NCBI RefSeq assembly: GCF_036507355.1
Contig: NZ_AP027877.1
Direction: 5' to 3' (one strand)
Length of the DNA stretch: 64,000 bases
Source of the DNA: Escherichia coli
GTDB lineage: Bacteria; Pseudomonadota; Gammaproteobacteria; Enterobacterales; Enterobacteriaceae
In this document: positions 36,919 through 54,600 of the stretch, piece by piece
Numbering within the stretch: position 1 is the first letter of the stretch
How the letters are laid out: each line of letters starts with the position of its first letter
The notes under the pieces: model-generated
What the model was told of the DNA's origin: nothing
What the model saw: the letters and a program-made list of their open reading frames with translations, nothing else
Database searches by the model: none
Position numbers and translations under genes: made by a program

Positions 36919-39453
36919 TTAATTACTACCAAACATATCTTTAATCCAACCGGCTACACCGTCGCTGTCTTTCTGCTCTTGCTGAGCAGGTTGCTGTTGC
37001 GGTTGTTGCTGCGGCTGAGAAGACTGATCAAACGGATTGCCTGACGGTTGCTGCTGCATCTCACTCTGCTGGCACAGCGATTGCGGATCGCTGGTCCAGA
37101 CCGGCAAGACACGCATGCCACCGCTGCAAACAAAGTTGCCGTCGTAGTCCACGCCCATATCTGCAATATCTTCTGGCGGAACAAGATTCAGCGGTGTTGG
37201 CGTCTGGTTAGCCAGATAACGCTGATAAATCGACATTGCCCCGCTGGCTCCATACAGTTTGGTCGGCTGGTTGTTATCACGGCCTACCCAGGTGATGGTC
37301 ACCGTGCTGCCGTCAATGCCCGCAAACCAGGTATCTACGTTATTGTTGGTAGTCCCTGTTTTCCCTGCCAGATGCAGGTTCGGGTATTTCGCCCCAAGCT
37401 GACGACCCGTACCGCGTTGTACCACCTGCTGCATGGTCCATAGTGTCAGATACGCCGCCTGCGCCGGAACAGCGCGTTCCGCCTGCGGGAAGCTCTGATA
37501 CAGCACTTTGCCATCTTCCGCGATTACCGAACGCAGCGCAGAAAGCGGTGCACGGTTACCACCGCTGGCGATGGTCTGGAATGCCTGCGCCACTTCGATT
37601 GGCGTTAAGTTCAACGCCCCCAGCAGCATTGCCGGAACCGGATGCAACTGATCTTTCGGTACGCCCAGTTTAATCCAGGTATCCGTAACCGCAGGCAGCC
37701 CCAGCGCCATCCCCAGATTTACCGTCGGCACGTTCATCGAACGGGTCAACGCATCCACCAGCATCACTCTGCCGCTTTCGCTATAACGACGGTCATCGTT
37801 CTGCGGTGACCAGACCTGGCCATTCGGCTGACGCAGCGCAATTGGCGCATCCGCAATCCACGTATTCAGACGATAGATTTTCGGCTGGCTTAAGGCCGTC
37901 AGATAAGTCGCTGGTTTTGCAAGGGAACCAATCGAACGACGCGCCTGCATCGCACGGTTGTAGCCCGCAAACTGCGGCTCAGAACCTCCGACCATCGCAC
38001 GAACTTCACCACTAAAGCGGTCGACGACCACAATCGCAGTTTCAAGATCGCTCAACTTACGCTGTTTCTTCAGTGCAGGAATGCCTTCCACGGCGGCTTT
38101 TTCTGCCGCGTCCTGGGCCACCGAGTCAAAGGTAGTGAAGATCTTCACGCCGGAGAGATCTTTTACCTTATCGCCTAATTTCGCTTGCAGCTCCTGACGC
38201 ACCAATTGCATAAAGGCTGGCTGTGGAGAGATTACCCCACCGCGCGGCTGAACCCCCAGCGGACGCGCACTCAACATGTCATAGAGTTCTTGATCAATAA
38301 TCTGTTGCTGTTGCAGCAGACGCAGTACCAGATTACGTCGCTCCAGCGCCAGTTTCGGGTTACGCCACGGGTTGTAGATGGACGCTCCTTTCACCATACC
38401 GACTAACAGCGCCTGCTGATCGAGGCTCAATTCTTCTACCGGGCGACCAAAGTAATACAAGCTCGCCAGCGGGAAGCCGCGGATTTCGTTGTCGCCACTC
38501 TGACCGAGATACACCTCGTTCATATACAGCTCAAGAATACGGTCTTTGCTGTAACGCGCGTCCATGATCAGCGCCATGTAAGCTTCGTTCGCTTTACGCC
38601 AGTAAGAGCGCTCGCTGGAGAGGAACAGGTTTTTCACCAGCTGTTGCGTCAGCGTACTCGCCCCCTGCACCGTGCGTCCGGCTGTCAGGTTTGCCAGCAC
38701 CGCACGTCCGATGGAGTAGAGACTGATTCCATCATGCTCGTAGAAATGGCGGTCTTCTGTCGCCAGCAAAGTATCCACCAGCAAATCCGGGAAACCACTG
38801 CGCGGCACAAACAAACGCTGCTCACCGTTTGGTGAGGAGATCATGGTGATCAGACGCGGATCAAGACGGAAGAAACCGAACTGACGGTTGTTCTCCATAT
38901 TGACGATCGTCGCCAGATGATCGCCATCAAAGGTCAGACGCGCGCGCACCTGTCCTTCTTTACTGTCCGGGAAATCAAACGGACGGCGAATCATCTCAAT
39001 GCTGTTGGCCTTCACGGTAAATTCGCCAGGACGGGTCATTTTTGACACCTGACGATACTGGGTTGCCTCCAGCAGCTTCACCATTTCGTTCTTGCTGATG
39101 GTCATGTCTGGCTCAAGGTTGACCATTCGGCCATAAACTGCCGCAGGCAGTTGCCAGACCTTGCCATCAATACGGCTGCGAATTTTTTGATCGAGATAAA
39201 CGCCGTAAATGGCGATCAGCACGGCAAAAACGATAGCCAGTTTTAACAGCAGCCATAGCCAGCCGCGTTTGCCACGAGGCTTACGCCCTTTGCCTTTGCC
39301 CTTACCTTTGCGCGGCATCGGTTCTTCATCCTCATAGTCATCATAATCGTCGTAATCATCGTCATCTTCGTAACGACGACGGCTTACCTTTTGTTTGACC
39401 GGACGCGTCGGTTTCCCTTTGCGTCCAATTGGCTCGCGGTCATTCCCGGCCAT
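36919..39453 (-). CDS. mrcB: Penicillin-binding protein 1B (bifunctional glycosyltransferase/transpeptidase)
   Basis: ORF 36919..39468; 844-aa product from [15 protein letters not shown]; acidic/basic N-terminal tail, TM helix, GT51 and transpeptidase domains. Confidence 0.95.
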
Positions 39454-39540
39454 GCTTTTTCTCCGCAATATTCAGGCGCAAAAGCCCGATTTTCTGTTCT
39501 TCTGTTACAAGACAGAAGAAGATATCTCTCAAAATTTGCT

Positions 39541-39640
39541 TTTCTCCCTCTCCCTGTGGGAGAGGGCCGGGGTGAGGGCATCAGCGCGCACATTACCCCT
39601 CACCCTATCCCTCTCCCCATAGGGGCGAGGGGACTGCTCA
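39541..39640. repeat. GC-rich palindromic intergenic repeats (REP/BIME-like) between hrpB and mrcB
   Basis: Three adjacent imperfect palindromes: CTCTCCC-TGT-GGGAGAG; GGGTGAGGG...CCCTCACCC; CCCTCTCCCC-ATA-GGGGCGAGGG. Confidence 0.4.
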
Positions 39641-39648
39641 TACCCGTT

Positions 39649-42078
39649 TTACGAATACTTTTTCGTCCGTCGCGTCGGTGCCGTGTTTGCCGGGTCGTCC
39701 GGCCAGACGTGTTTGGGATAACGCCCTTTCATCTCCTTTTGCACCTCACGATACGCCCCTTTCCAGAAGGCCCCCAAATCACGCGTGATTTGCAGCGGCC
39801 TTTGGGCAGGGGAAAGCAACTCCAGCACCAGCGGCACGCGCCCCTGGGCGATCGTCGGATTGGTGGCCTCACCAAACATCTCCTGCATTCTCACCGCCAG
39901 CGCGGGCGGGTTATCTTCATGATAACGAATGGCGATCCGGCTTCCCGTCGGCACAGTGTAATGCGCAGGCAATTCACTATCCAGACGTTGCTGCATTCCC
40001 CAATCAAGTAATCCGCGTAGTGCCTGATAAATGTCGAGTGATTTCAGGCCGCGTAGTGAATGTACACCGGCCATATGTGGCAGCAGCCACGTTTCCAGCG
40101 TCCCCAACAAACTTTCAACATCAACCGCTGGCCAGTCATATTCTGGCAACCACTTTCCGGCGCATAACAAACGCAAGCGTAGCTGTTCCGCTTCCGCCGT
40201 CCAGTTGAGCACGCTTAAACCTTTATCACGGATGCCGTTAAGCATCGCCTGATGCAACTCGTCTTCTGACGGTTTCGCCAACGGCTGCACTTTCACCGTC
40301 AACTGACCGATTTGCAGCCGACGCCAGGCTTTCAGCGTACCTTGCGCGTCATCCCATTCCACGGTGTCAGATTGCTGCACCAGCTGCGGACAGCGTCGCA
40401 CTAATTCATCAATATCGACCGGTAGCGCCAGTAAAATCCGCGCATCCGGCGAGGCGCTGCCCTGCAATAATAACGGTGCGATCAACCATTCGTGGCGGCT
40501 TAGCGCGTCGTCGGCATCGAGCATCGCTCCCATGCCGTTTGCCAGTTGATAGCGTCCATCTTGCCCACGGCGGCGAGCAATGCGATCGGCAAACGCCCCG
40601 GCAAGTAGCAGCGCGATAAGCGAACTGTCTGCCTCACCGCCGCGTACGTTTAAGCGTTTTAACAGTTGCTGACTACGTTGCTGCCAGGCTGGTTGATTGC
40701 GCGAAAACGCCACGCCCAAGTCACTATTGCCCATCCGTGGCGGCTCTTCGAGAATGGCGGCAATTTTTGCCGCGGTAGCAGCTTCGTCGTCGCTCTTTGC
40801 GCTAACCAGCATTGCCGCTAAACGCGGATCGTTACCCAGCGCTGCCATTTTTTGCCCCTGCGCACTAAGCCGTTCACCGTCCAGCGCCCCCAGCATCTTT
40901 AACAGGCGTTTCGCGGCCAGTAAATTCACTGCTGGCGGTTGATCCAGCCAGCTCATCTGCGCCGGATCGCTGCATCCCCATTGCAGTAATTCCATCAGCA
41001 AACCGGAAAGATCGCTTTGTAATATTTCCGGTTCACTTTGCGCCGCGGCGCGTTCTGCTTGTTCCTTGGCGATTAAATGCAGGCAGATACCCGGCTCCAG
41101 ACGCCCGGCGCGCCCGGCACGCTGCGTCATGGATGCCTGGCTAACGCGTTGAGTAATCAGTCGCGTAAGCCCCGTGCGCGGATCAAAACGCGCCACACGC
41201 TCCTGGGCACAATCCACCACCAGACGAATACCTTCAATGGTTAAACTGGTTTCAGCAATATTGGTCGCCAGCACCACTTTGCGCATCCCTTGCGGTGCCG
41301 GGAGGATCGCTTTTCGCTGATCGTTCAGCGACAACGCGCCATACAGCGGGCAGAGCAATACATCACTGCCGATGCGCGAAGCCAGTTGTTCCTGCACACG
41401 CTGAATTTCTCCGACGCCAGGTAAAAATAACAGTAATGATCCGCTTTCCTGACGCAGCATTTCAGCGGTGGCTACCGCAACGGCATCGTCAAAACGCTGA
41501 TGCGTGGGCAGCGGTAAATAACGGCGTTCAACCGGAAACGAGCGCCCTTCTGAGATGACGACGGGCGCTTCTGGCAGCATTTGCTGCAAGCGGTCGTTGT
41601 CCAGCGTAGCCGACATAATCAGCAGTTTAAGGTCATCACGCAGACCTTGTTGCACATCGAGTAACAGCGCCAACGCCAAATCCGCCTGCAAGCTACGCTC
41701 ATGAAATTCATCAAGGATCACCAATCCAACACCGCTCAGTTCCGGGTCACGCTGGATCATCCGCGTCAGCACGCCTTCGGTAACTACTTCCAGGCGGGTA
41801 TTCGGCCCGACGCAGTTTTGCGCACGCATCCGGTAGCCAACGGTATCGCCTGGCTTTTCGTTAAGCAGCTCCGCCAGCCGTTGCGCGACATTACGCGCCG
41901 CCAGACGACGCGGCTCCAGCAGGATAATTTTCCCGTTAATGCCGGGATGCGCCAGCAGTTGCAGCGGCAGCCAGGTTGATTTCCCGGCCCCGGTCGGCGC
42001 ACTTAATAATACCTGCGGCGCACAATCGAGAGCGGTAAGTAATTCAGGTAAGACGGCAGCAACGGGCAACGACGACAC
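39649..42078 (-). CDS. hrpB: ATP-dependent RNA helicase HrpB (DEAH-box)
   Basis: ORF 39649..42123; Walker A APTGAGKST, DEFH box; 809-aa product if started at GTG 42078. Confidence 0.9.
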   Translation of the reverse strand: MSSLPVAAVLPELLTALDCAPQVLLSAPTGAGKSTWLPLQLLAHPGINGKIILLEPRRLAARNVAQRLAELLNEKPGDTVGYRMRAQNCVGPNTRLEVVTEGVLTRMIQRDPELSGVGLVILDEFHERSLQADLALALLLDVQQGLRDDLKLLIMSATLDNDRLQQMLPEAPVVISEGRSFPVERRYLPLPTHQRFDDAVAVATAEMLRQESGSLLLFLPGVGEIQRVQEQLASRIGSDVLLCPLYGALSLNDQRKAILPAPQGMRKVVLATNIAETSLTIEGIRLVVDCAQERVARFDPRTGLTRLITQRVSQASMTQRAGRAGRLEPGICLHLIAKEQAERAAAQSEPEILQSDLSGLLMELLQWGCSDPAQMSWLDQPPAVNLLAAKRLLKMLGALDGERLSAQGQKMAALGNDPRLAAMLVSAKSDDEAATAAKIAAILEEPPRMGNSDLGVAFSRNQPAWQQRSQQLLKRLNVRGGEADSSLIALLLAGAFADRIARRRGQDGRYQLANGMGAMLDADDALSRHEWLIAPLLLQGSASPDARILLALPVDIDELVRRCPQLVQQSDTVEWDDAQGTLKAWRRLQIGQLTVKVQPLAKPSEDELHQAMLNGIRDKGLSVLNWTAEAEQLRLRLLCAGKWLPEYDWPAVDVESLLGTLETWLLPHMAGVHSLRGLKSLDIYQALRGLLDWGMQQRLDSELPAHYTVPTGSRIAIRYHEDNPPALAVRMQEMFGEATNPTIAQGRVPLVLELLSPAQRPLQITRDLGAFWKGAYREVQKEMKGRYPKHVWPDDPANTAPTRRTKKYS

Positions 42079-44070: not shown

Positions 44071-44997
44071 ATGCTCCCGCCTTATTTTTTGTTCAAAGAG
44101 ATGACAGACACACACTATATTGGCCGCTTCGCCCCCTCTCCTTCCGGCGAGCTTCATTTTGGTTCTCTGATTGCTGCGCTTGGCAGCTATTTGCAGGCTC
44201 GCGCCCGGCAAGGTCGCTGGCTGGTACGCATAGAAGATATCGACCCGCCTCGTGAAGTTCCCGGTGCCGCAGAAACTATCCTGCGCCAGCTGGAACATTA
44301 CGGTCTGCACTGGGACGGCGATGTTCTCTGGCAATCGCAACGTCACGATGCCTATCGTGAAGCACTCGCCTGGTTACATGAACAAGGACTAAGTTATTAC
44401 TGCACCTGCACGCGTGCGCGTATTCAAAGCATTGGCGGTATTTACGACGGTCATTGCCGGGTGTTGCATCATGGACCAGACAACGCCGCAGTGCGTATCC
44501 GCCAGCAGCATCCGGTCACGCAATTTACTGACCAGCTGCGCGGCATTATTCACGCCGACGAAAAACTGGCACGGGAAGATTTTATTATTCATCGCCGTGA
44601 TGGTTTGTTTGCCTATAACCTGGCGGTGGTGGTGGATGATCACTTCCAGGGCGTGAGCGAAATTGTCCGCGGGGCAGATTTGATCGAACCGACAGTGCGG
44701 CAAATCTCGCTGTACCAGCTTTTTGGCTGGAAAGTGCCAGATTACATTCATCTGCCGCTGGCGCTTAATCCACAAGGCGCTAAACTTTCCAAGCAGAATC
44801 ATGCGCCTGCGTTGCCGAAAGGTGATCCACGCCCGGTACTAATCGCGGCACTTCAATTTCTGGGGCAGCAGGCAGAAGCACACTGGCAGGATTTCAGCGT
44901 CGAGCAAATCCTTCAGTCAGCCGTCAAAAACTGGCGGCTTACCGCAGTGCCTGAGTCGGCAATTGTAAATTCAACATTCTCAAATGCGTCATGCTGA
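44071..44997 (+). CDS. gluQ: Glutamyl-Q tRNA(Asp) synthetase (start may be internal ATG at 44101)
   Basis: 308-aa ORF; class I aaRS HIGH-like motif [15 protein letters not shown]. Confidence 0.85.
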
Positions 44998-45056: not shown

Positions 45057-46454
45057 ATTTTTACCCGAGTCGCTAATTTTTGCCGCAAGGTGCTAAGCCG
45101 CGAGGAAAGCGAGGCTGAACAGGCAGTCGCCCGTCCACAGGTGACGGTGATCCCGCGTGAGCAGCATGCTATTTCCCGCAAAGATATCAGTGAAAATGCC
45201 CTGAAGGTAATGTACAGGCTCAATAAAGCGGGATACGAAGCCTGGCTGGTTGGCGGCGGCGTGCGCGACCTGTTACTTGGCAAAAAGCCGAAAGACTTTG
45301 ACGTAACCACTAACGCCACGCCTGAGCAGGTGCGCAAACTGTTCCGTAACTGCCGCCTGGTGGGTCGCCGTTTCCGTCTGGCTCATGTGATGTTTGGCCC
45401 GGAGATTATCGAAGTTGCGACCTTCCGTGGACACCACGAAGGTAACGTCAGCGACCGCACGACCTCCCAACGCGGGCAAAACGGCATGTTGCTGCGCGAC
45501 AACATTTTCGGCTCCATCGAAGAAGACGCCCAGCGCCGCGATTTCACTATCAACAGCCTGTATTACAGCGTAGCGGATTTTACCGTCCGTGATTACGTTG
45601 GCGGTATGAAGGATCTGAAGGACGGCGTTATCCGTCTGATTGGTAACCCGGAAACGCGCTACCGTGAAGATCCGGTACGTATGCTGCGCGCAGTACGTTT
45701 TGCCGCCAAATTGGGTATGCGCATCAGCCCGGAAACCGCAGAACCGATCCCTCGCCTCGCTACCCTGCTGAACGATATCCCACCGGCACGCCTGTTTGAA
45801 GAATCGCTTAAACTGCTACAAGCGGGCTACGGTTACGAAACCTATAAGCTGCTGTGTGAATATCATCTGTTCCAGCCGCTGTTCCCGACCATTACCCGCT
45901 ACTTCACGGAAAATGGCGACAGCCCGATGGAGCGGATCATTGAACAGGTGCTGAAGAATACCGATACGCGTATCCATAACGATATGCGCGTGAACCCGGC
46001 GTTCCTGTTTGCCGCCATGTTCTGGTACCCACTGCTGGAGACGGCACAGAAGATCGCCCAGGAAAGCGGCCTGACCTATCACGACGCTTTCGCGCTGGCG
46101 ATGAACGACGTGCTGGACGAAGCCTGCCGTTCACTGGCAATCCCGAAACGTCTGACGACGTTAACCCGCGATATCTGGCAGTTGCAGTTGCGTATGTCCC
46201 GACGTCAGGGTAAACGTGCATGGAAACTGCTGGAGCATCCTAAGTTCCGTGCGGCTTATGACCTGTTGGCCTTGCGAGCTGAAGTTGAACGTAACGCTGA
46301 ACTGCAGCGTCTGGTGAAATGGTGGGGTGAGTTCCAGGTTTCCGCGCCACCAGACCAAAAAGGGATGCTCAACGAGCTGGATGAAGAACCGTCACCGCGT
46401 CGTCGTACTCGTCGTCCACGCAAACGCGCACCACGTCGTGAGGGTACCGCATGA
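45057..46454 (+). CDS. pcnB: Poly(A) polymerase I (non-canonical AUU start)
   Basis: ORF 45036..46454; established PAP I N-terminus begins [18 protein letters not shown] at ATT 45057, preceded by GAGG. Confidence 0.9.
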
Positions 46455-46930
46455 CAGTGGCGTATATTGCCATAGGCAGCAATCTGGCCTCTCCGCTGGA
46501 GCAGGTCAATGCTGCCCTGAAAGCATTAGGCGATATCCCTGAAAGCCACATTCTTGCCGTTTCTTCGTTTTACCGCACTCCACCGCTGGGGCCGCAAGAT
46601 CAACCCGATTACTTAAATGCAGCCGTAGCGCTGGAAACCTCTCTTGCCCCTGAAGAGCTACTCAATCACACTCAGCGTATTGAGTTACAACAAGGTCGCG
46701 TCCGTAAAGCGGAACGCTGGGGACCGCGCACGCTGGATCTCGACATCATGCTGTTTGGTAATGAAGTAATAAATACCGAACGCCTGACCGTTCCGCACTA
46801 CGATATGAAGAATCGTGGATTTATGCTGTGGCCGCTGTTTGAAATCGCGCCGGAGTTGGTGTTTCCTGATGGGGAGACGTTGCGTGAAATTTTACATGCA
46901 AGAAAATTTAGTAAATTAAACCAGTGGTAA
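46451..46930 (+). CDS. folK: 6-hydroxymethyl-7,8-dihydropterin pyrophosphokinase
   Basis: 159-aa [66 protein letters not shown]; overlaps pcnB stop by 4 nt. Confidence 0.95.
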
Positions 46931-47076
46931 TTTATTAATTTCGTGAATATAAATAATTTCCGAAAATCACATCATTCCAATTCCCAAACCAATCCTATTA
47001 GAGTAGACACTAGCTACATCAATTAATATTTAAATGCATCCTACCCATCTCCTTACACGAAACATCTCCATTTTGA

Positions 47077-47117
47077 AATTTAAATTTACTTAACCCTGAT
47101 TTAAGTAAATTTAAATT
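47077..47117. promoter_or_regulatory. 17-bp perfect palindrome in AT-rich yadN upstream region (candidate operator)
   Basis: AATTTAAATTTACTTAA -7 nt spacer CCCTGAT- TTAAGTAAATTTAAATT; ~175 bp upstream of yadN start. Confidence 0.4.
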
Positions 47118-47290
47118 GCTCAAGTAACTTTAAAATGCACAATATGCGTCCTAATGAGGAATGATTGTAAATTTAGGTAACAAACAATCATTTCTCATTA
47201 ATGTTTGAATATATCTTTATATATTTGAGCCATGAATAGTCATACTTCAAATTAATGAACTACCTTATGGAATATTATTCAAGGATTATT

Positions 47291-47875
47291 ATGTCGAAAA
47301 AATTAGGTTTTGCGCTGTCCGGCTTGATGTTAGCAATGGTTGCTGGTAATGCTTCTGCAGCACTGGACGGTGGCCAATTAAATATCAGCGGTCTGGTAGT
47401 TGATAACACCTGTGAAACCCGTGTTGATGGTGGCAACAAAGATGGCCTGGTGCTGCTGCAAACTGCAACTGTTAGTGAAATCACTGCAGGCGTACTGAAT
47501 GACACCGTAGGTGCTAAAGCTAAACCTTTCAGCATCACCGTTGACTGCAGCAATGCGAACCCGAATCCTGGTAGCACTGCTAAAATGACCTTCGGTTCCG
47601 TGTTCTTTGGCAATAGCAAAGGGACTCTGAACAACGATATGTCTATTAATACCCCGGCTGATGGTGTAAATATTGCCCTGCACAATATTGATGGTTCTAC
47701 TATCAAACAGGTTCAAATTAACAACCCAGGTGATGCTTACATTAAAACCATGGATGCAACCTCAAAAACTGCAACTTTTGATTTTAAAGCATCCTATGTT
47801 CGTGCTGAAACAAGCACAGCACCAACTGCTGGTTATGTTAAAACCAACACTGCATATACCATTACTTACCAGTAA
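47291..47875 (+). CDS. yadN: Fimbrial major subunit-like protein YadN
   Basis: ORF 47255..47875; 194-aa product from [23 protein letters not shown] (signal peptide), fimbrial subunit C-terminus ...YTITYQ. Confidence 0.85.
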
Positions 47876-47980
47876 TCATTCGTTAGATTCATAAAACGAA
47901 TATATTTGGGAGATAACATTCAACTTACTTAGTAGTGGAATATTACTCCCTATTTTAATTAACTCTGTCAGGAATGGTTT

Positions 47981-48721
47981 ATGTTTTTAAACGCTAAACA
48001 TACTGCAGCATTATGTTTCGCCGCTTGTATGAGTTTGAGTACATCGGCAATAGCAGATATCGTAATTTCAGGAACTCGCGTAATTTATAAAAGCGATCAA
48101 AAAAGCGTGAACGTTCGTCTGGAAAATAAAGGGAATAATCCGTTACTTGTTCAGAGCTGGCTGGATACTGGCGACGACAGTGCTGAACCGGGGAGCATTA
48201 AAGTTCCATTTACCGCCACCCCACCGGTTTCACGTATTGATGCCAAACGTGGTCAAACCATTAAATTGATGTACACGGCTTCTTCGCCTCTGCCAAAAGA
48301 CAGAGAAAGTGTTTTCTGGTTTAACGTACTTGAAGTTCCACCCAAGCCTGACGCCGATAAAGTCGCTAATCAGAGCCTTCTGCAATTAGCTTTCCGTACG
48401 CGTATCAAACTGTTTTATCGCCCGGAAGGTTTAAACGGACTGCCAACTGATGCACCAGCTGCACTGAAATGGTCATGGACAACCTCTGCTGGCAAAACTG
48501 CATTGCGCGTCGCAAATCCGACGCCGTATCACGTGTCATTCAGTAGTGGTGATTTAGTCGCCAATGGCAAAACCTACCCACTGGACGTCAAAATGGTGGC
48601 CCCGCTGAGTGAAGAAACCTTCTACATAAAAGGCATGAGTGGTAAAGCAAGTTCGGCAAAAGTGCATTTCTTCGCCATAAATGACTTTGGTGGCGCAATT
48701 GAAGGCAATGCCAGCCTGTAA
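47981..48721 (+). CDS. yadV: Periplasmic fimbrial chaperone (PapD-like)
   Basis: 246-aa ORF, signal peptide, RVIYKSDQKSVNVRLENKGNNPLLVQSW chaperone N-domain. Confidence 0.9.
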   Translation: MFLNAKHTAALCFAACMSLSTSAIADIVISGTRVIYKSDQKSVNVRLENKGNNPLLVQSWLDTGDDSAEPGSIKVPFTATPPVSRIDAKRGQTIKLMYTASSPLPKDRESVFWFNVLEVPPKPDADKVANQSLLQLAFRTRIKLFYRPEGLNGLPTDAPAALKWSWTTSAGKTALRVANPTPYHVSFSSGDLVANGKTYPLDVKMVAPLSEETFYIKGMSGKASSAKVHFFAINDFGGAIEGNASL

Positions 48722-48755
48722 CTAAATCAGGAATAAACGCAGCAGGAAGCACAAC

Positions 48756-51356
48756 GTGTCCAGAAAAATCATAAAAACGCATAATAACAAACTTACTTAT
48801 ATAGCCTCGTTTTGCGCATTGCTGTTAAGCCCCTGTGCCATAAGCGCTGAACACGTTGAATATGATAATACCTTTTTGATGGGGCAAGATGCTTCTAACA
48901 TCGACCTTAGTCGGTATACCGAAGGTAACCCTACCTTGCCCGGCGTGTATGACGTCAGTGTTTATGTCAACGATCAACCAGTTATCAGCCAAAGCATCTC
49001 CTTTATTACCCTCGAAGGTAAGAAAAATGCGCAGGCTTGTATCACGCTGAAGAATTTATTGCAATTTCACATTAACCAGCCTGATATAAAAGACGAGAAT
49101 GCCATCCTTCTTCAACGAGAAGAAGAGCTAGGGGACTGTCTCGATCTGGGGAATGTTATTCCTCAAGCTTCCGTTCATTACGACGTTAATGATCAACGAC
49201 TGGACATCAACGTTCCTCAAGCCTGGGTAATGAAGAATTACCAAAACTATGTTGATCCATCATTGTGGGAAAACGGTATTAACGCTGCAATGCTGTCCTA
49301 CAATGTCAACGCATATCACAGCGAAATACCAGACAGAAAAAACGACAGTGTTTATGCGGCATTTAACGGCGGTATAAATCTGGGGGCATGGCGGCTTCGT
49401 GCCACCGGTAACTACAACTGGATGACCGATGCAGGCACTAATTACGATTTTCAAAATCGCTATTTGCAGCGCGACCTGGCCTCTTTGCGTTCACAGTTAG
49501 TTGTGGGTGAGTCATACACAACTGGGGAAACCTTTGATTCTGTCAGTATTCGCGGTGTTCGCTTATACAGTGACAGCCGAATGCTACCACCTACATTAGC
49601 CAGTTTTGCGCCAATTATTCATGGTGTTGCTAACACCAACGCAAAAGTCACCATTACCCAGGGTGGTTATAAAATCTATGAAACTACCGTGCCGCCGGGC
49701 GCATTTGTCATTGATGATGTAAGCCCATCAGGCTACGGCAGCGATCTCATTGTCACAATCGAAGAGTCTGATGGCACAAAGCGAACTTTTTCCCAGCCAT
49801 TTTCTTCGGTCGTTCAGATGTTACGTCCAGGTGTGGGAAGATGGGACATCAGTGCAGGTAAGATCTTAAAAGACGATATTCAAAATGAGCCTAATTTGTT
49901 CCAGGCCAGTTATTACTATGGTCTGAACAACCTCCTGACGGGGTATACCGGTATTCAGATTACCGATAATAACTATACTGCCGGGCTGCTTGGTCTTGGT
50001 CTGAATACCACATACGGTGCGTTTTCAGTCGATGTAACCCATTCAGATGTGCAAATTCCGGATGATAAAACCTACCGGGGGCAAAGCTATCGCCTTTCCT
50101 GGAATAAGTTATTTGAAGATACCAGAACTTCGCTCAATATCGCGGCTTACCGTTATTCTACCCAGAATTATCTGGGGCTTAACGATGCCCTGACACTGAT
50201 CGACGAAGTAAAACATCCTGAACAGGACCTGGAACCTAAAAATATGCGTAACTATTCTCGCATGAAAAATCAGGTTACGGTCAGTATTAACCAACCGCTG
50301 AAATATGGAAAGGAAGACTACGGCTCATTCTATCTTTCCGGAAGTTGGTCTGATTATTGGGCTTCCGGTCAAAATAATACCAATTACTCCCTCGGCTACA
50401 GTAACAGCGCATCGTGGGGCAGCTACAGCATTAGTGCTCAGCGCTCCCGGGATCAAGACGGCGATAATGAAGATAGCATCTATCTAAGCTTTAGTATTCC
50501 TATCGAAAAATTACTGGGTACAGAACATCGTAATTCTGGTTTTCAGACCATTGATACTCAGTTAAGTAGTGATTTCGATGGCAGCAACCAACTCAGTATC
50601 AGTAGTAGTGGTTTTAGCGACGATAACCGTATCAGTTATAGCGTCAATACGGGCTATTCGATGATGAAGTCCAGCGATGATTTGAGCTATATCGGTGGGT
50701 ATGCGAGCTATGAATCTCCCTGGGGAACACTTGCCAGTTCAGTTTCCGCCAGCAGCGATAATAGCCGTCAGATCTCATTTAATACCGATGGTGGATTTGT
50801 TTTGCATAGCGGCGGCCTGACCTTCAGTAATGATAGCTTCAGCGATTCCGATACTTTGGCGGTTATACAAGCGCCAGGAGCTAAAGGGGCACGCATTAAC
50901 TATGGTAATAGCACGGTAGACCGTTGGGGATATGGCGTTACTAATGCACTTTCGCCATACCATGAAAACCGAATTGCACTCGATATTAACGGTCTCGAAA
51001 ATGACGTTGAGCTGAAAAGTACCAGTGCTGTTGCCGTACCACGCCAGGGGTCTGTTGTCTTTGCTGGTTTTGAAACTGTCCAGGGGCAATCGGCTATCAT
51101 GAACATCAAGCGTACAGATGGTAAAAACATTCCGTTTGCCGCTGATATTTATGACGAAAACGGCAATATCATTGGTAACGTTGGGCAAGGTGGTCAGGCC
51201 TTTGTTCGAGGTATAGAACAACAAGGCAATATACGAATCAACTGGCTTGACGAGGGTAAACCTGTTACTTGCCTTGCTCATTACCAACAGAGCGCAGCAC
51301 CAGAAAAAATAGCGCAATCTATTATTTTGAATGGAATTAGTTGTCAGATTCAGTAA
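48756..51356 (+). CDS. htrE: Fimbrial outer-membrane usher protein
   Basis: 866-codon ORF (GTG start), usher family (PapC/FimD-like). Confidence 0.9.
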   Translation: MSRKIIKTHNNKLTYIASFCALLLSPCAISAEHVEYDNTFLMGQDASNIDLSRYTEGNPTLPGVYDVSVYVNDQPVISQSISFITLEGKKNAQACITLKNLLQFHINQPDIKDENAILLQREEELGDCLDLGNVIPQASVHYDVNDQRLDINVPQAWVMKNYQNYVDPSLWENGINAAMLSYNVNAYHSEIPDRKNDSVYAAFNGGINLGAWRLRATGNYNWMTDAGTNYDFQNRYLQRDLASLRSQLVVGESYTTGETFDSVSIRGVRLYSDSRMLPPTLASFAPIIHGVANTNAKVTITQGGYKIYETTVPPGAFVIDDVSPSGYGSDLIVTIEESDGTKRTFSQPFSSVVQMLRPGVGRWDISAGKILKDDIQNEPNLFQASYYYGLNNLLTGYTGIQITDNNYTAGLLGLGLNTTYGAFSVDVTHSDVQIPDDKTYRGQSYRLSWNKLFEDTRTSLNIAAYRYSTQNYLGLNDALTLIDEVKHPEQDLEPKNMRNYSRMKNQVTVSINQPLKYGKEDYGSFYLSGSWSDYWASGQNNTNYSLGYSNSASWGSYSISAQRSRDQDGDNEDSIYLSFSIPIEKLLGTEHRNSGFQTIDTQLSSDFDGSNQLSISSSGFSDDNRISYSVNTGYSMMKSSDDLSYIGGYASYESPWGTLASSVSASSDNSRQISFNTDGGFVLHSGGLTFSNDSFSDSDTLAVIQAPGAKGARINYGNSTVDRWGYGVTNALSPYHENRIALDINGLENDVELKSTSAVAVPRQGSVVFAGFETVQGQSAIMNIKRTDGKNIPFAADIYDENGNIIGNVGQGGQAFVRGIEQQGNIRINWLDEGKPVTCLAHYQQSAAPEKIAQSIILNGISCQIQ

Positions 51357-51375
51357 CAACAGGGAATTTCACATA

Positions 51376-51945
51376 ATGAGAATAACACTGCATAAATTGG
51401 CAATACTGACGGGATTATTTTTATCATCCTCTGTACTTGCAACAGACATTAATGTTGATTTTACAGCAACCGTAAAAGCATCAACTTGTAATATTACGCT
51501 AACAGGTAACAATGTCACCAGTGACGGGAATGACACCTACACACTAACATTCCCTGGTACTATTGGCCTGGATAAAATTGCAAATAAAACTACTCAGGCA
51601 CAGGCGAATTTTAATCTGGTTGCCAGCGGTTGTACCACAGGCGTCAGTAAAATCACCACCAAACTCAGTGGAAGTGCTTCGGGAAGTTCACCCGCATTAA
51701 TCATTCCGTCAACTTCCGACACTACATCAACCACCGATTATATTGGTATGGGTATAAAAAGAATTGATACTGATGATTCGACATTTTTAACCCCAAACAG
51801 TGCACAAAGCATTATATGGAGTGGAACAGAAATTAGCAGCACTGAGGGTCTTAAACTGACCGTTGCATTGCGCGAAACCAGTGCTGGCAGGGGCGTTCCT
51901 GGCGATTTCCGCGCCCAGGCAACATTCAATTTCATTTATGAATAA
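51376..51945 (+). CDS. yadM: Fimbrial subunit-like protein YadM
   Basis: ORF 51331..51945; 189-aa product from MRITLHKLAILTGLFLSSSVLA. Confidence 0.8.
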   Translation: MRITLHKLAILTGLFLSSSVLATDINVDFTATVKASTCNITLTGNNVTSDGNDTYTLTFPGTIGLDKIANKTTQAQANFNLVASGCTTGVSKITTKLSGSASGSSPALIIPSTSDTTSTTDYIGMGIKRIDTDDSTFLTPNSAQSIIWSGTEISSTEGLKLTVALRETSAGRGVPGDFRAQATFNFIYE

Positions 51946-51959
51946 CAGGGATGATAATA

Positions 51960-52565
51960 ATGAAATCTAAAACATTACGTTATGGACTGCCTGCTGGTAT
52001 TATTTTGACGGCATCCCTATTCACCAGCCAATTGTTTGCAGCGACAGATAACGTTAAGCTGAATGTTAAAGCAACCGTAGAGATGGGAACCTGTACCGCC
52101 AGCCTGGTGGATGACAATGATCAACCTTTAACTGTTGTTGCATTTGGTGACGCTTATATTCCTGAAATTGATGCCAAAACAAAAATTAAAACTTTTAAGT
52201 TACAGTTTAAGGACTGTGCAGGCGTTCCTAATAAAAAGGCCTTGGTCAAATTAACTAAACGCGCAACGTGTGAAGGAACGGCCAACGATGGGCCTGGATT
52301 TGCAAACGGCTCCGCTGCGGCTGATAAAGCAAGCGCTGTGGCGGTTGAAGTATGGAGTACCACGGCACCCGCTACAGGTGGCGCGACTCAATTTAGCTGT
52401 GTAACACCGGTCGCTCAGGAAGTGAATATCTCCGCTGCAACAGGAAATACATCGGTATATCATCCTATGAGTGCACGCCTGGTGGTAGAGAAAAATAAAA
52501 GCAGTACCGACATCACTGCCGGTCCGTTTTCGGCACCTGCGACATTTTCTATCACCTATAACTAA
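51960..52565 (+). CDS. yadL: Fimbrial subunit-like protein YadL
   Basis: ORF 51951..52565; product from MKSKTLRYGLPAGIILTASLFTSQLFA; C-terminal ...FSITYN. Confidence 0.8.
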   Translation: MKSKTLRYGLPAGIILTASLFTSQLFAATDNVKLNVKATVEMGTCTASLVDDNDQPLTVVAFGDAYIPEIDAKTKIKTFKLQFKDCAGVPNKKALVKLTKRATCEGTANDGPGFANGSAAADKASAVAVEVWSTTAPATGGATQFSCVTPVAQEVNISAATGNTSVYHPMSARLVVEKNKSSTDITAGPFSAPATFSITYN

Positions 52566-52591
52566 CAGGCCATTAAAGTCAGGGACCGATT

Positions 52592-53188
52592 ATGCTTTCC
52601 TCTCAACTAAAAATTAAGATAAAAACAAGTCTGTTCCTGGCATTATTGTTTGCCACATCCAGCCCTGTATATGCAGGACTGGATGTGGATATGGTTGCCA
52701 ATATCAAGAACAGTACATGTAAAAGTGGCCTCAGCAACCTTGGTAATATCGACCTTGGTGTGGTGGGTGTGGAGTATTTTTCTGGTAATGTCACGGCTGA
52801 AGACAATTATCCCGGCGGGAGAGAGTTCACTGTCACTGTGACTGACTGCGCCATCCAGGGTTCTGGAAATGTGTTAAATCAGTTACATATTAACTTTAAA
52901 CCACTCAATGGCGTGATGGCGACTGGCTCTCAGCAAATTTTTGCAAATGAAAATGTCGCCGGGGCTCAAAACGTAGGTGTAGTCATATTTTCCATTCAGG
53001 ATCCGGCTAATACATTTAATGTTCTTAATCCAGCGGGCAGTTCTCGTTCAATTTATCCGGTGATGACGGCTGATTTAAACAATTCATCCTGGAAATTCTA
53101 CACACGAATGCAAAAAATTAACCCAGCGCTAAATATCGCATCGGGTCAGGTCAAAAGCACTGTGCTGATTGATATTTATTATGAATAG
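52592..53188 (+). CDS. yadK: Fimbrial subunit-like protein YadK
   Basis: 198-aa ORF with signal peptide; C-terminal ...VLIDIYYE. Confidence 0.8.
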   Translation: MLSSQLKIKIKTSLFLALLFATSSPVYAGLDVDMVANIKNSTCKSGLSNLGNIDLGVVGVEYFSGNVTAEDNYPGGREFTVTVTDCAIQGSGNVLNQLHINFKPLNGVMATGSQQIFANENVAGAQNVGVVIFSIQDPANTFNVLNPAGSSRSIYPVMTADLNNSSWKFYTRMQKINPALNIASGQVKSTVLIDIYYE

Positions 53189-53237
53189 TCTCATGCATAA
53201 GAAATATAACTAAACACACATATTGGGAATGATACAA

Positions 53238-54488
53238 ATGAGAGCCATTCTTAACCACTTAATTTTATTATTATTTATATCCAGTTTTTCGCTCTATGCT
53301 GCCAACAATACAATATTTGTCGTTGGAGCAGGAAACGCCGATAGTTTTGCTGGTCCTTCTGGCAATGGAAGAGCAACATTCCGCTATTCGACGGCCAGTA
53401 ATAATTTAGTATTTTATAAACCAACCGGACCTGGCGTTGTTAAAACAAATGTAAAACTCTACTGGTCACAACTCGACACAGCAAGCGGGGGGAATACAGG
53501 GCTTGTATATTGCAACAGGGCTGGCTCTGCCAGTGACGAACCCATTCTCATTAAGCCTAAAATGGTAGAGTCTGGTTTAACTTATGGCGGTAATAAGCTA
53601 TTTAAAACCTCCGTGACCGGCCTTTACTACACGCTAACTATTTCTAATATTTGGACAGCATGGGACACAACAACTAATATCTCTTCTATCGTTGTCGGTA
53701 ATCGCCCGGATGGTGAGTATGATGGTTTCCGTTTTCAGGTTAGTAATTCTTATGTTAATCAAGGCTGTAATAATGCCGGCACAACCAGTAAATATGCGGC
53801 CATTGGTGGCATAATGCAAAGCCTTACCATCGAATTTTATACCGATGGCACATTTGATCCGGTGCAAAATCAGAAAGTTACCTTATTACGTACTGCTGAC
53901 CACCTCTACGAATTTAAAACGGAAGGAGCAGGTGGCGGTATCAACGAACATAGCAAATCTATTTATGTCGATTTTGATTTGGTAAATATCACGATTACAT
54001 TACCGACCTGTTTTACTTCTGTTCTTACTGGAACATCTGTTAGTGGTTCTACGGTAAAAATGGGGGAATACACCTCTGAGGAAATTAAAAATGGAGCGAC
54101 ACCTGTTCCTTTCGATATTTCCCTGCAAAACTGTATACGGGTAAGAAATATTGAAACAAAGCTTGTTTCCGCAAAAGTTGGCACTGAGAACAGAAAACTA
54201 CTCGGTAATACTCTCACCGGTAATGATGCAGCAAAGGGAGTAGGTGTATTAGTTGAGGGCTTGCTATCCGTTAAAAGTCTGCAAATGGTTCTGGAGCCGA
54301 ATAACGCCTCTTCCGTGTATAAAGATTATGAGTATGAAGACGATGCAACTGAGGGGATATATCCCGATAAAGGAAACGGTACAACACAAGCACTCCATTT
54401 CCAGGCTACATTACAGCAGGATGGAACTATACCAATAGAATCAGGTGAGTTTAAAGCCACCAGTACTTTCCAGGTGACCTACCCTTAA
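53238..54488 (+). CDS. yadC: Fimbrial tip adhesin-like protein YadC (start uncertain, 53223-53250)
   Basis: ORF 53223..54488; signal peptide MRAILNHLILLLFISSFSLYA; two-domain adhesin-like size, C-terminal pilin domain ...TFQVTYP. Confidence 0.8.
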   Translation: MRAILNHLILLLFISSFSLYAANNTIFVVGAGNADSFAGPSGNGRATFRYSTASNNLVFYKPTGPGVVKTNVKLYWSQLDTASGGNTGLVYCNRAGSASDEPILIKPKMVESGLTYGGNKLFKTSVTGLYYTLTISNIWTAWDTTTNISSIVVGNRPDGEYDGFRFQVSNSYVNQGCNNAGTTSKYAAIGGIMQSLTIEFYTDGTFDPVQNQKVTLLRTADHLYEFKTEGAGGGINEHSKSIYVDFDLVNITITLPTCFTSVLTGTSVSGSTVKMGEYTSEEIKNGATPVPFDISLQNCIRVRNIETKLVSAKVGTENRKLLGNTLTGNDAAKGVGVLVEGLLSVKSLQMVLEPNNASSVYKDYEYEDDATEGIYPDKGNGTTQALHFQATLQQDGTIPIESGEFKATSTFQVTYP

Positions 54489-54600
54489 TAAGCCCACCGC
54501 ACCGCCATCATCTGGCGGTGCGGTAATTGATAAATCATTGCCCCCACCAATGTGACTGATAAAATGCCAGGTAACACGACATCATTTATCAGGACACGTT

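Follow-up and report, generated by a model that had tools for sequence, protein, structure and literature searches.

Whether a fimbrial operon that shares the position and gene order of yad in Escherichia coli K-12 is in fact the K-12 operon was the question raised by positions 47291 to 54488 of a 64,000-nucleotide (nt) stretch of E. coli DNA (contig NZ_AP027877.1, assembly GCF_036507355.1; here called the window). The list of open reading frames (ORFs) placed seven intact, non-overlapping plus-strand ORFs in this interval, making up a full chaperone-usher (CU) pathway. Their order between folK and panB, namely major subunit, chaperone, usher, three minor subunits and adhesin, is that of MG1655 b0135 to b0141. 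The initial annotation had described a complete seven-gene CU operon at the known yad locus, and both statements held: the ORFs lie where it put them, the roles given by Pfam agree, the locus and gene order match MG1655, and the usher falls in the Yad clade. The gene names that it used, YadN through YadC, were right as to family and locus but wrong in the K-12 genes that they imply, with ∼77% nucleotide identity to K-12 across the operon and 57% amino acid (aa) identity for YadC. In our assessment, the operon very probably represents a rare, deeply diverged Yad haplogroup (called III) carried in a K-12-like (phylogroup A-like) chromosome, and it is equally well supported that the operon is intact for the production of Yad-family CU fimbriae. 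The features of the region are as follows (GC, guanine-plus-cytosine content).

46451 to 46930: folK, left flanking gene.
46556 to 46930, plus strand: 3′ part of folK, onset of divergence from K-12 and left edge of the proposed replaced segment.
46931 to 47290, plus strand: AT-rich folK-yadN spacer, presumed promoter/leader; GC 0.27, 71 to 75% identical to K-12.
47077 to 47117, plus strand: inverted repeat I1, perfect 17-nt arms, 7-nt spacer.
47152 to 47200, plus strand: inverted repeat I2, 17-nt arms, 15-nt spacer.
47291 to 47875, plus strand: YadN-like major pilin, 194 aa; Pfam Fimbrial 2.7e−12, C-terminal ..TITYQ.
47981 to 48721, plus strand: PapD-like periplasmic chaperone (YadV/EcpD-like), 246 aa; Pfam PapD_N 7.6e−45, PapD_C 1.8e−18.
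48756 to 51356, plus strand: outer-membrane usher (HtrE-like), 866 aa, GTG start; Pfam PapC_N, Usher (2e−159), PapC_C.
51376 to 51945, plus strand: YadM-like minor pilin, 189 aa; Pfam Fimbrial 1.2e−18.
51960 to 52565, plus strand: YadL-like minor pilin, 201 aa; Pfam Fimbrial 2.6e−7.
52592 to 53188, plus strand: YadK-like minor pilin, 198 aa; Pfam Fimbrial 23.0 bits, C-terminal ..DIYYE.
53238 to 54488, plus strand: YadC-like two-domain tip adhesin, 416 aa; receptor-binding domain aa 22 to 250 (53301 to 53987), pilin domain aa 256 to 416 (54003 to 54485).
54496 to 54524, plus strand: GC-rich 12-bp hairpin, terminator-like right boundary of the variable cassette, 8 nt past the yadC stop.
54601 to 55395: panB, right flanking gene.
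54601 to 57800: panB-panC-rpnC segment in which divergence from K-12 is raised, linked with the cassette.

The Pfam Fimbrial domain scored above its cut-off in four of the five subunits. In translation, each of the five has a signal peptide, two paired Cys residues and, in its C-terminal strand, a Tyr at the penultimate position, the features expected of CU pilins. Two gene starts were adjusted: that of yadM is the ATG at 51376, a minor correction of the gene call, and the most likely start of yadC is the ATG at 53238, not the TTG of the ORF (53223). The 416-aa YadC read from 53238 is present in NCBI with exactly the same sequence on five contigs. Exact copies of the YadN-like and YadL-like proteins are also public; the latter appears as StaE in some records, and in some databases the window-type YadL and YadK are named StaE and StaF.

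The chaperone contains both Ig-like domains and the anchoring residues. It matches the crystal structure of K-12 YadV (5GHU) at 1e−124, also aligns to FimC and PapD, and keeps the mature N-terminus DIVISGTR (Arg8) and the ..RIKLFYRP motif, with the equivalence of Arg8 and Lys112 to PapD numbering read from these motifs, not from structural superposition. N-terminal, barrel/plug and C-terminal domains are all present in the usher, whose whole length can be aligned to FimD and PapC structures (to FimD chains over residues 20 to 854). It groups with HtrE on the basis by which Wurpel and Nuccio define Yad, usher phylogeny together with locus position. By analogy with the family, subunits would be exported by Sec, captured in the periplasm by the PapD-like chaperone through donor-strand complementation, and handed to the HtrE-like usher. 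The resulting fiber would carry the YadC-like adhesin at its tip, followed by the YadK-, YadL- and YadM-like minor or adaptor subunits and a YadN-like rod, an order that donor-strand exchange at the usher is expected to produce in this family.

Divergence from K-12 was assessed against a reference locus (L001) that is 99.986% identical to MG1655. Identity to MG1655 is about 66 to 85% per gene at the DNA level, or 83% over the part alignable by blastn, and for the 7.7-kb yad region as a whole, identity to the common E. coli type is ∼76.5%. The corresponding aa identities are 88% for YadN, 81% for YadV, 85% for HtrE (79% at the nucleotide level), 66% for YadM, 72% for YadL, 68% for YadK and 57% for YadC; as flank controls, pcnB and panB gave 100% and 98%. 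From yadV through yadC, the proportion of synonymous differences (pS) is 0.64 to 0.79, so that synonymous sites are saturated, against 0.027 for pcnB. Ratios of nonsynonymous to synonymous divergence (dN/dS) between the window and K-12 alleles are 0.04 to 0.14, and therefore both sets of alleles are under purifying selection. That a K-12-type operon had merely been made to look divergent by misalignment was considered and rejected, the MG1655 sequence itself having been compared.

The edges of the divergent segment differ on the two sides. The left flank (gluQ-pcnB-folK) shares 95 to 99% identity with 5310 of 5424 complete E. coli genomes, and the window is 99 to 100% identical to K-12 from ∼41.2 to 46.4 kb. 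Mismatches are few as far as 46289 but crowded past 46556, with identity per 200-nt bin dropping through the 3′ end of folK from 98.5% to 94% and then 83%. Bins within the operon range from 54 to 89%, with the minimum in the 5′ two-thirds of yadC. On the right, identity recovers at the start of panB, stays at 90 to 97.5% through panBC-rpnC to ∼57.8 kb, and returns to 98 to 100% beyond about 58000. Synonymous divergence (dS) from K-12 is 0.21 for panB and 0.25 for panC, compared with 0.027 for pcnB. The panBC genes of the window are at least 99% identical in only 11 of 5,426 genomes, while 4250 fall in the 90 to 95% band. The housekeeping genes panB-panC-rpnC appear to hitchhike with the fimbrial polymorphism. 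The replaced segment would extend from the 3′ end of folK (∼46.6 kb), with divergence fading in panBC-rpnC (∼57.8 kb), and such a pattern most likely marks homologous recombination at a site where several allelic lineages of great age occur.

Other differences from K-12 were observed in the neighborhood. Within gluQ, a ∼110-bp patch (44586 to 44698) carries 20 mismatches, the rest of the gene being 99% identical, and looks like a short recombination tract. The mrcB-hrpB spacer (39400 to 39800) is 85 to 87% identical to K-12, with indels and a ∼100-bp match in inverted orientation, and is probably a strain-variable repetitive extragenic element. Between panC and rpnC, ∼560 bp (56260 to 56820) are missing in K-12 and present in the Nissle, CD306 and 500010 loci. 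A minus-strand ORF of 71 aa there (56536 to 56751) is 57% identical to the C-terminus of the adjoining RpnC-like protein (56820 to 57728) and so looks like a partial duplicate.

A tree of 13 ushers, built by neighbor joining on simple identity distances and carrying no bootstraps, placed the window usher inside the Yad clade, at 83 to 88% aa identity to those of K-12, CD306, Nissle, E. fergusonii and Escherichia sp. E4742. The clade comprises roughly equidistant lineages: K-12/CD306, Nissle/H22, the type represented by locus L017, window/PapRG/500010, and E. fergusonii with E4742. Outside it lie the ushers of locus L016 (74%), O157:H7 (60%) and Salmonella (60%). The O157:H7 usher, which is 59 to 60% identical to other E. 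coli ushers, groups with the Salmonella (Sta) usher; the window usher does not. Nuccio and Baumler reportedly assigned both Yad and Sta to the gamma-4 usher sub-clade in 2007, a point that the text of Wurpel does not make in words. At the same chromosomal site, O157:H7 F7386 has a Sta-like seven-gene operon (L011, 3902 to 10866) with a 369-aa adhesin, and L016 (6591 to 13116) has only six genes. The L016 and L017 hosts are E. coli by pcnB (97.7%), compared with 94% for the E4742 type, 82% for the E. fergusonii record and 80% for Salmonella.

The locus itself is old. A seven-gene CU operon between folK and panB was found in Salmonella enterica, in the order hrpB-thpR-sfsA-dksA-gluQ-pcnB-folK-[operon]-panB-panC-panD, and also in E. 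fergusonii and Escherichia sp. E4742. This agrees with the published view that Yad and Sta are the same operon, older than the genus split (Wurpel 2013, PMC3559732), and bears out the suggestion of ancient acquisition made from the sequence at the outset. The usher is 79% identical at the nucleotide level between E. coli haplogroups, and pcnB is 80 to 81% identical between E. coli and Salmonella, so the divergence between haplogroups equals that of pcnB between the two genera. A scan of genome contigs for outgroups, using usher alignment and two strict peptide patterns, returned only three loci (one metagenome-assembled genome, the E. coli representative and a 243-bp contaminant contig) and no outgroup information; outgroups were obtained instead by protein searches and from the contigs encoding the matches.

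Haplogroup III is rare and internally varied. By megablast, 204 of the 5,426 complete E. coli genomes showed its yadMLK block; identity was 95 to 99% in 41 (the window subtype) and 90 to 95% in 163. For the whole 7.7-kb yad region, only 69 genomes fell in the 95 to 99% band (best, 98.2%), and in 39 genomes a match covered 80% or more of yadC, the closest having 94.8% nt identity. The 90%-identity cluster of the window YadC has 268 member sequences versus 2601 to 3967 for the common YadC types. Within E. coli, the haplogroup has subtypes at 98%, 94% and 88 to 91% nt identity, and the listed carriers are mainly animal and environmental isolates. In these carriers, the Prokaryotic Genome Annotation Pipeline (PGAP) gives the usher, chaperone and adhesin generic names, not htrE or yadC. 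The closest relative, TB06052, is near-identical to the window up to ∼50.9 kb and, across yadM through yadC, differs from it by dS of 0.07 to 0.17, which makes the window operon a mosaic within its haplogroup. PapRG-04-4 has a group III operon, yet its YadC is 97% identical to that of HCM-22C-2, which belongs to group I and has a K-12-type usher; yadC is shuffled independently of the remaining operon.

The adhesin is the part in which the operon differs most. An AlphaFold2 model of YadC (predicted local distance difference test score, 86) comprised an N-terminal domain (aa 22 to 250) and a pilin domain (aa 256 to 416), the arrangement of a two-domain tip adhesin. The best full-length Foldseek matches of the model were FimH, LpfD, FocH and PapG, and the predicted receptor-binding domain resembles those of F17, Ucl and MrkD. 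A sequence search of the PDB with YadC gave no match, and no solved YadC structure was found there. YadC is 57% identical to that of K-12, 62% to that of Nissle (CFT073-like) and 55% to that of CD306. Against sampled E. coli types the range is 57 to 62%, setting aside the TB06052 subtype (95%) and the O157:H7 type (27%), and a wider protein search identified types up to 69% identical. Compared with K-12, the lectin part has a dN of 0.45 and the pilin part one of 0.15. These values upheld the expectation that YadC would vary most, and its N-terminal domain most of all, across strains; the operon is far from invariant. The high dN of the lectin part fits a changed receptor specificity without proving one, and we infer that specificity may differ from that of K-12 and uropathogenic E. 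coli (UPEC) YadC. No signal of gene-wide positive selection on YadC was obtained, with dN/dS of 0.16 within the haplogroup and at most 0.12 between haplogroups, where dS is saturated. Binding of YadC to xylose-containing glycans and annexin A2 has been reported for K-12 and CFT073 (PMC13245861, PMC6921372). Near-identity to the characterized K-12/UPEC proteins was not found: since YadC is only 55 to 62% and the minor subunits 61 to 72% identical to them, receptor data from other alleles are not transferable.

As had been supposed from the letters alone, the operon is AT-richer than the flanking housekeeping genes, with a GC that is low far beyond chance and a deviant codon usage. From 46931 to 54600, GC is 0.428 versus 0.521 in the remainder of the window, and a sliding profile falls from 0.52 to 0.58 in the flanks to 0.33 to 0.47 across the operon. 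The seven yad genes have GC of 0.414 to 0.460 and GC at third codon positions (GC3) of 0.340 to 0.437, compared with 0.521 ± 0.027 and 0.559 ± 0.044 in 46 other window genes (Mann-Whitney P of about 1e−8). Codon adaptation was measured by GC3, by rare-codon frequency and by an index that takes the other window genes as its reference. The rare codons AGA, AGG, ATA and CTA occur at 22.4 per 1000 in the yad genes versus 9.2 (2.4 times), and the index is lower in the yad genes (P = 8e−4).

To either side of the coding sequences lie conserved noncoding elements. Islands of the folK-yadN spacer kept in 11 distinct Escherichia haplotypes include the inverted repeats I1 and I2 and three short sequences: GAATATAAAT, ATGCA(C/A)AAT, and ATGGAATAT..CAAGGATT.TTATG. 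The first of these sequences (46946 to 46955, 16 nt past the folK stop) is invariant in all Yad-clade haplotypes, and the last (47264 to 47293), which is proximal to the Shine-Dalgarno (SD) sequence just before the yadN start, is nearly so. The rest of the spacer has diverged to ∼50 to 70% identity across these haplotypes. The perfect arms of I1 (47077 to 47093 and 47101 to 47117) exceed the longest perfect inverted repeat seen in 300 shuffles (13 nt), and its 9-bp core is kept in the 11 haplotypes with U-A/U.G changes on the plus strand. For I2 (47152 to 47168 and 47184 to 47200), an RNA hairpin of −20.6 kcal/mol was predicted in the window, and both-sided changes occur at two pairs across haplotypes (UA/UG/GC and GC/CG/GU). 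In the 11-sequence leader alignment, 80% of cells pair, against 26 to 48% with the partner slid. Because the window sequence itself supplied the structure and few sequences were compared, the leader hairpins are a lead, not a finding; I1 and I2 could form a structured 5′ leader or an operator. No Rfam family was matched in 46000 to 57000, and the Sta-type leaders of O157:H7 and Salmonella lack the I1 and I2 elements. At the other end, the hairpin at 54496 to 54524 is kept by compensatory substitutions in every haplogroup examined, the K-12, Nissle, 500010, L016 and O157:H7 haplotypes among them. It has no clear T-run after it, and the conserved panB promoter region starts past it.

Regulation of yad has been studied in other alleles. 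H-NS represses yad in K-12, CFT073 and EC958 (PMC13245861), the K-12 spacer is listed in an H-NS-association table of promoter islands (PMC3661553), and yadN rose 2.4-fold on SlyA overproduction (PMC5797941). By analogy, the window allele may be silenced by H-NS at its AT-rich leader and expressed only under particular cues. The SlyA consensus TTAN6TAA had no match in 46931 to 47290. Sigma-70 sites in the whole region were fewer than in shuffles; a possible TTTAAA-15-TAAAAT pair near 47107 to 47133 was read by eye and is supported by no tool.

Four other explanations of the operon were weighed against a rare Yad haplogroup. An ordinary K-12-type yad operon, conserved in sequence across E. coli, would account for the locus, the gene order and the near-equal gene lengths shared with MG1655, but is scarcely tenable with the DNA identities per gene, the 57 to 88% aa identities and the saturated synonymous sites given above, or with the generic PGAP names in carriers. 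Replacement of yad at the same site by a different, non-orthologous fimbrial type has a precedent in the non-Yad-clade operons of O157:H7, which is Sta-like, and L016, and might seem to be suggested by the low identity of YadC to other E. coli types, both sampled and from the wider search. The position of the usher within the Yad clade, the seven collinear genes of near-equal length, and the leader hairpins, SD-proximal leader and 3′ hairpin common to K-12-type operons, set against O157 and Salmonella leaders without the leader elements of the window, make such a replacement very unlikely. A recent import from another species, in place of an old E. coli lineage under balancing or frequency-dependent selection, has somewhat more in its favor: the usher differs between haplogroups as much as pcnB does between E. 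coli and Salmonella, and raised divergence reaches panBC as if the flanks had been imported too. However, no non-E. coli source was found, YadC matches of at least 89% are all labeled E. coli, the ushers of E. fergusonii and E4742 (83 to 85%) are no closer than those of other E. coli types, and the haplogroup has diversified inside E. coli into the subtypes described, across 204 genomes. We regard import as fairly unlikely.

The remaining alternative, a decaying cryptic remnant that is intact by chance, unselected and never expressed, draws on several of the points that weigh against an intact, functional Yad haplogroup. Yad fimbriae are cryptic in laboratory K-12 according to Korea 2010, as cited in PMC3559732 and PMC5797941. 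A simple sigma-70 scan identified no consensus promoter upstream of yadN. Among the 40 closest operons, ∼7 are broken by IS1, IS2, IS3 or IS5 or by an usher frameshift, so selection for the operon is not universal, and the interruptions suggest recurrent loss of function; the disrupted relatives include locus L004 (4838 to 7427). Also to be counted against the favored reading, the YadK-like protein scored just under the Pfam Fimbrial cut-off (23.0 versus 25.6 bits), with position, length, signal peptide, Cys pair and C-terminus that all fit a pilin; the phylogroup suggested for the host derives solely from identity to K-12; the function proposed for the haplogroup derives from homology; and the three-locus outgroup scan does not fix its donor or age. 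A remnant is nevertheless improbable, given seven intact ORFs, dN/dS of 0.04 to 0.14 against K-12 and 0.05 to 0.16 (yadM, yadL and yadC) within the haplogroup, noncoding elements kept by compensatory changes, and the induction in serum and tissue and role in colonization reported for Yad of other haplogroups (PMC13245861, PMC6921372). A rare and deeply diverged Yad haplogroup thus remains the reading that we favor.

Comparison with characterized systems places the operon further. With the Yad of K-12 and UPEC (yadN-yadV(ecpD)-htrE-yadM-yadL-yadK-yadC), it shares the locus, seven-gene order, near-equal lengths and usher clade, the hairpins of the leader and of the 3′ end, and a YadC of two domains in which the lectin domain varies; it differs in DNA identity (∼77%), in saturated synonymous sites and in the rarity of its haplogroup. 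Binding to xylose and annexin A2, H-NS control and serum induction were all shown for Yad alleles other than that of the window. Salmonella Sta (staABCDEFG) is likewise a seven-gene CU operon between folK and panB, with a 60% identical usher, a higher GC (0.525) and a leader without the Yad hairpins. The adhesin domains of the F17, Ucl, Mrk, Atf and Abp systems (GafD/F17G, UclD, MrkD, AtfE and Abp1D) have 5 to 13% sequence identity to the YadC domain, which is larger (∼230 aa compared with 160 to 190). Type 1 fimbriae (FimC/FimD/FimH) follow the same assembly logic; the window chaperone and usher give full-length matches to FimC and FimD structures, and the two-domain plan of FimH recurs in YadC, whose lectin domain is unrelated in sequence. 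They differ in that the window usher belongs to another sub-clade, no invertible promoter switch is evident, and there are three minor subunits.

As an annotation, the outcome is ordinary: a known fimbrial family, intact and of a rare type. The family is well known and its variability has been described in outline before. A 2026 study in PLoS Pathogens (PMC13245861) gave nucleotide identities of 80 to 100% for usher, chaperone and major subunit, 60 to 100% for minor subunits and 45 to 100% for the adhesin, and had already described variation of the lectin domain as well as recombination across phylogroups. In general terms the phenomenon is thus already in the literature, and the window operon is a rare lineage within it. 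What is added here is a rare, ancient allelic Yad lineage, put into a K-12-like backbone by recombination and having its own YadC receptor-binding domain. A broader proposal, possible rather than probable at present, is that folK-panB is a long-lived multi-allelic adhesin locus, comparable to O-antigen or flagellin, with at least six E. coli operon lineages, as far apart as the orthologs of other Escherichia species and one of them grouping with Salmonella Sta, kept by balancing or frequency-dependent selection. Under it, the yadC receptor-binding module would be exchanged independently, folK and panBC would hitchhike, the window lineage would have its own receptor specificity, and the structured two-hairpin leader of Yad-clade lineages would act in expression control.

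Recent work has linked Yad fimbriae to colonization of the bladder and bloodstream, and YadC is being explored as an anti-adhesion target. The label "yad-positive" covers very different adhesins, and because a K-12-like strain may hold a YadC only 57% identical to that of K-12, receptor, vaccine and inhibitor data need not carry over between alleles. Surveys based on identity thresholds or on gene-name annotation may mis-score such strains. In one survey, which set the threshold for usher identity at 80%, phylogroup E came out Yad-negative (PMC13245861), and an O157:H7-like operon, with a usher at 59 to 60%, would probably fail that threshold. For evolution, the locus clearly illustrates how old allelic lineages and the shuffling of modules can occur together at an adhesin site of the core genome.

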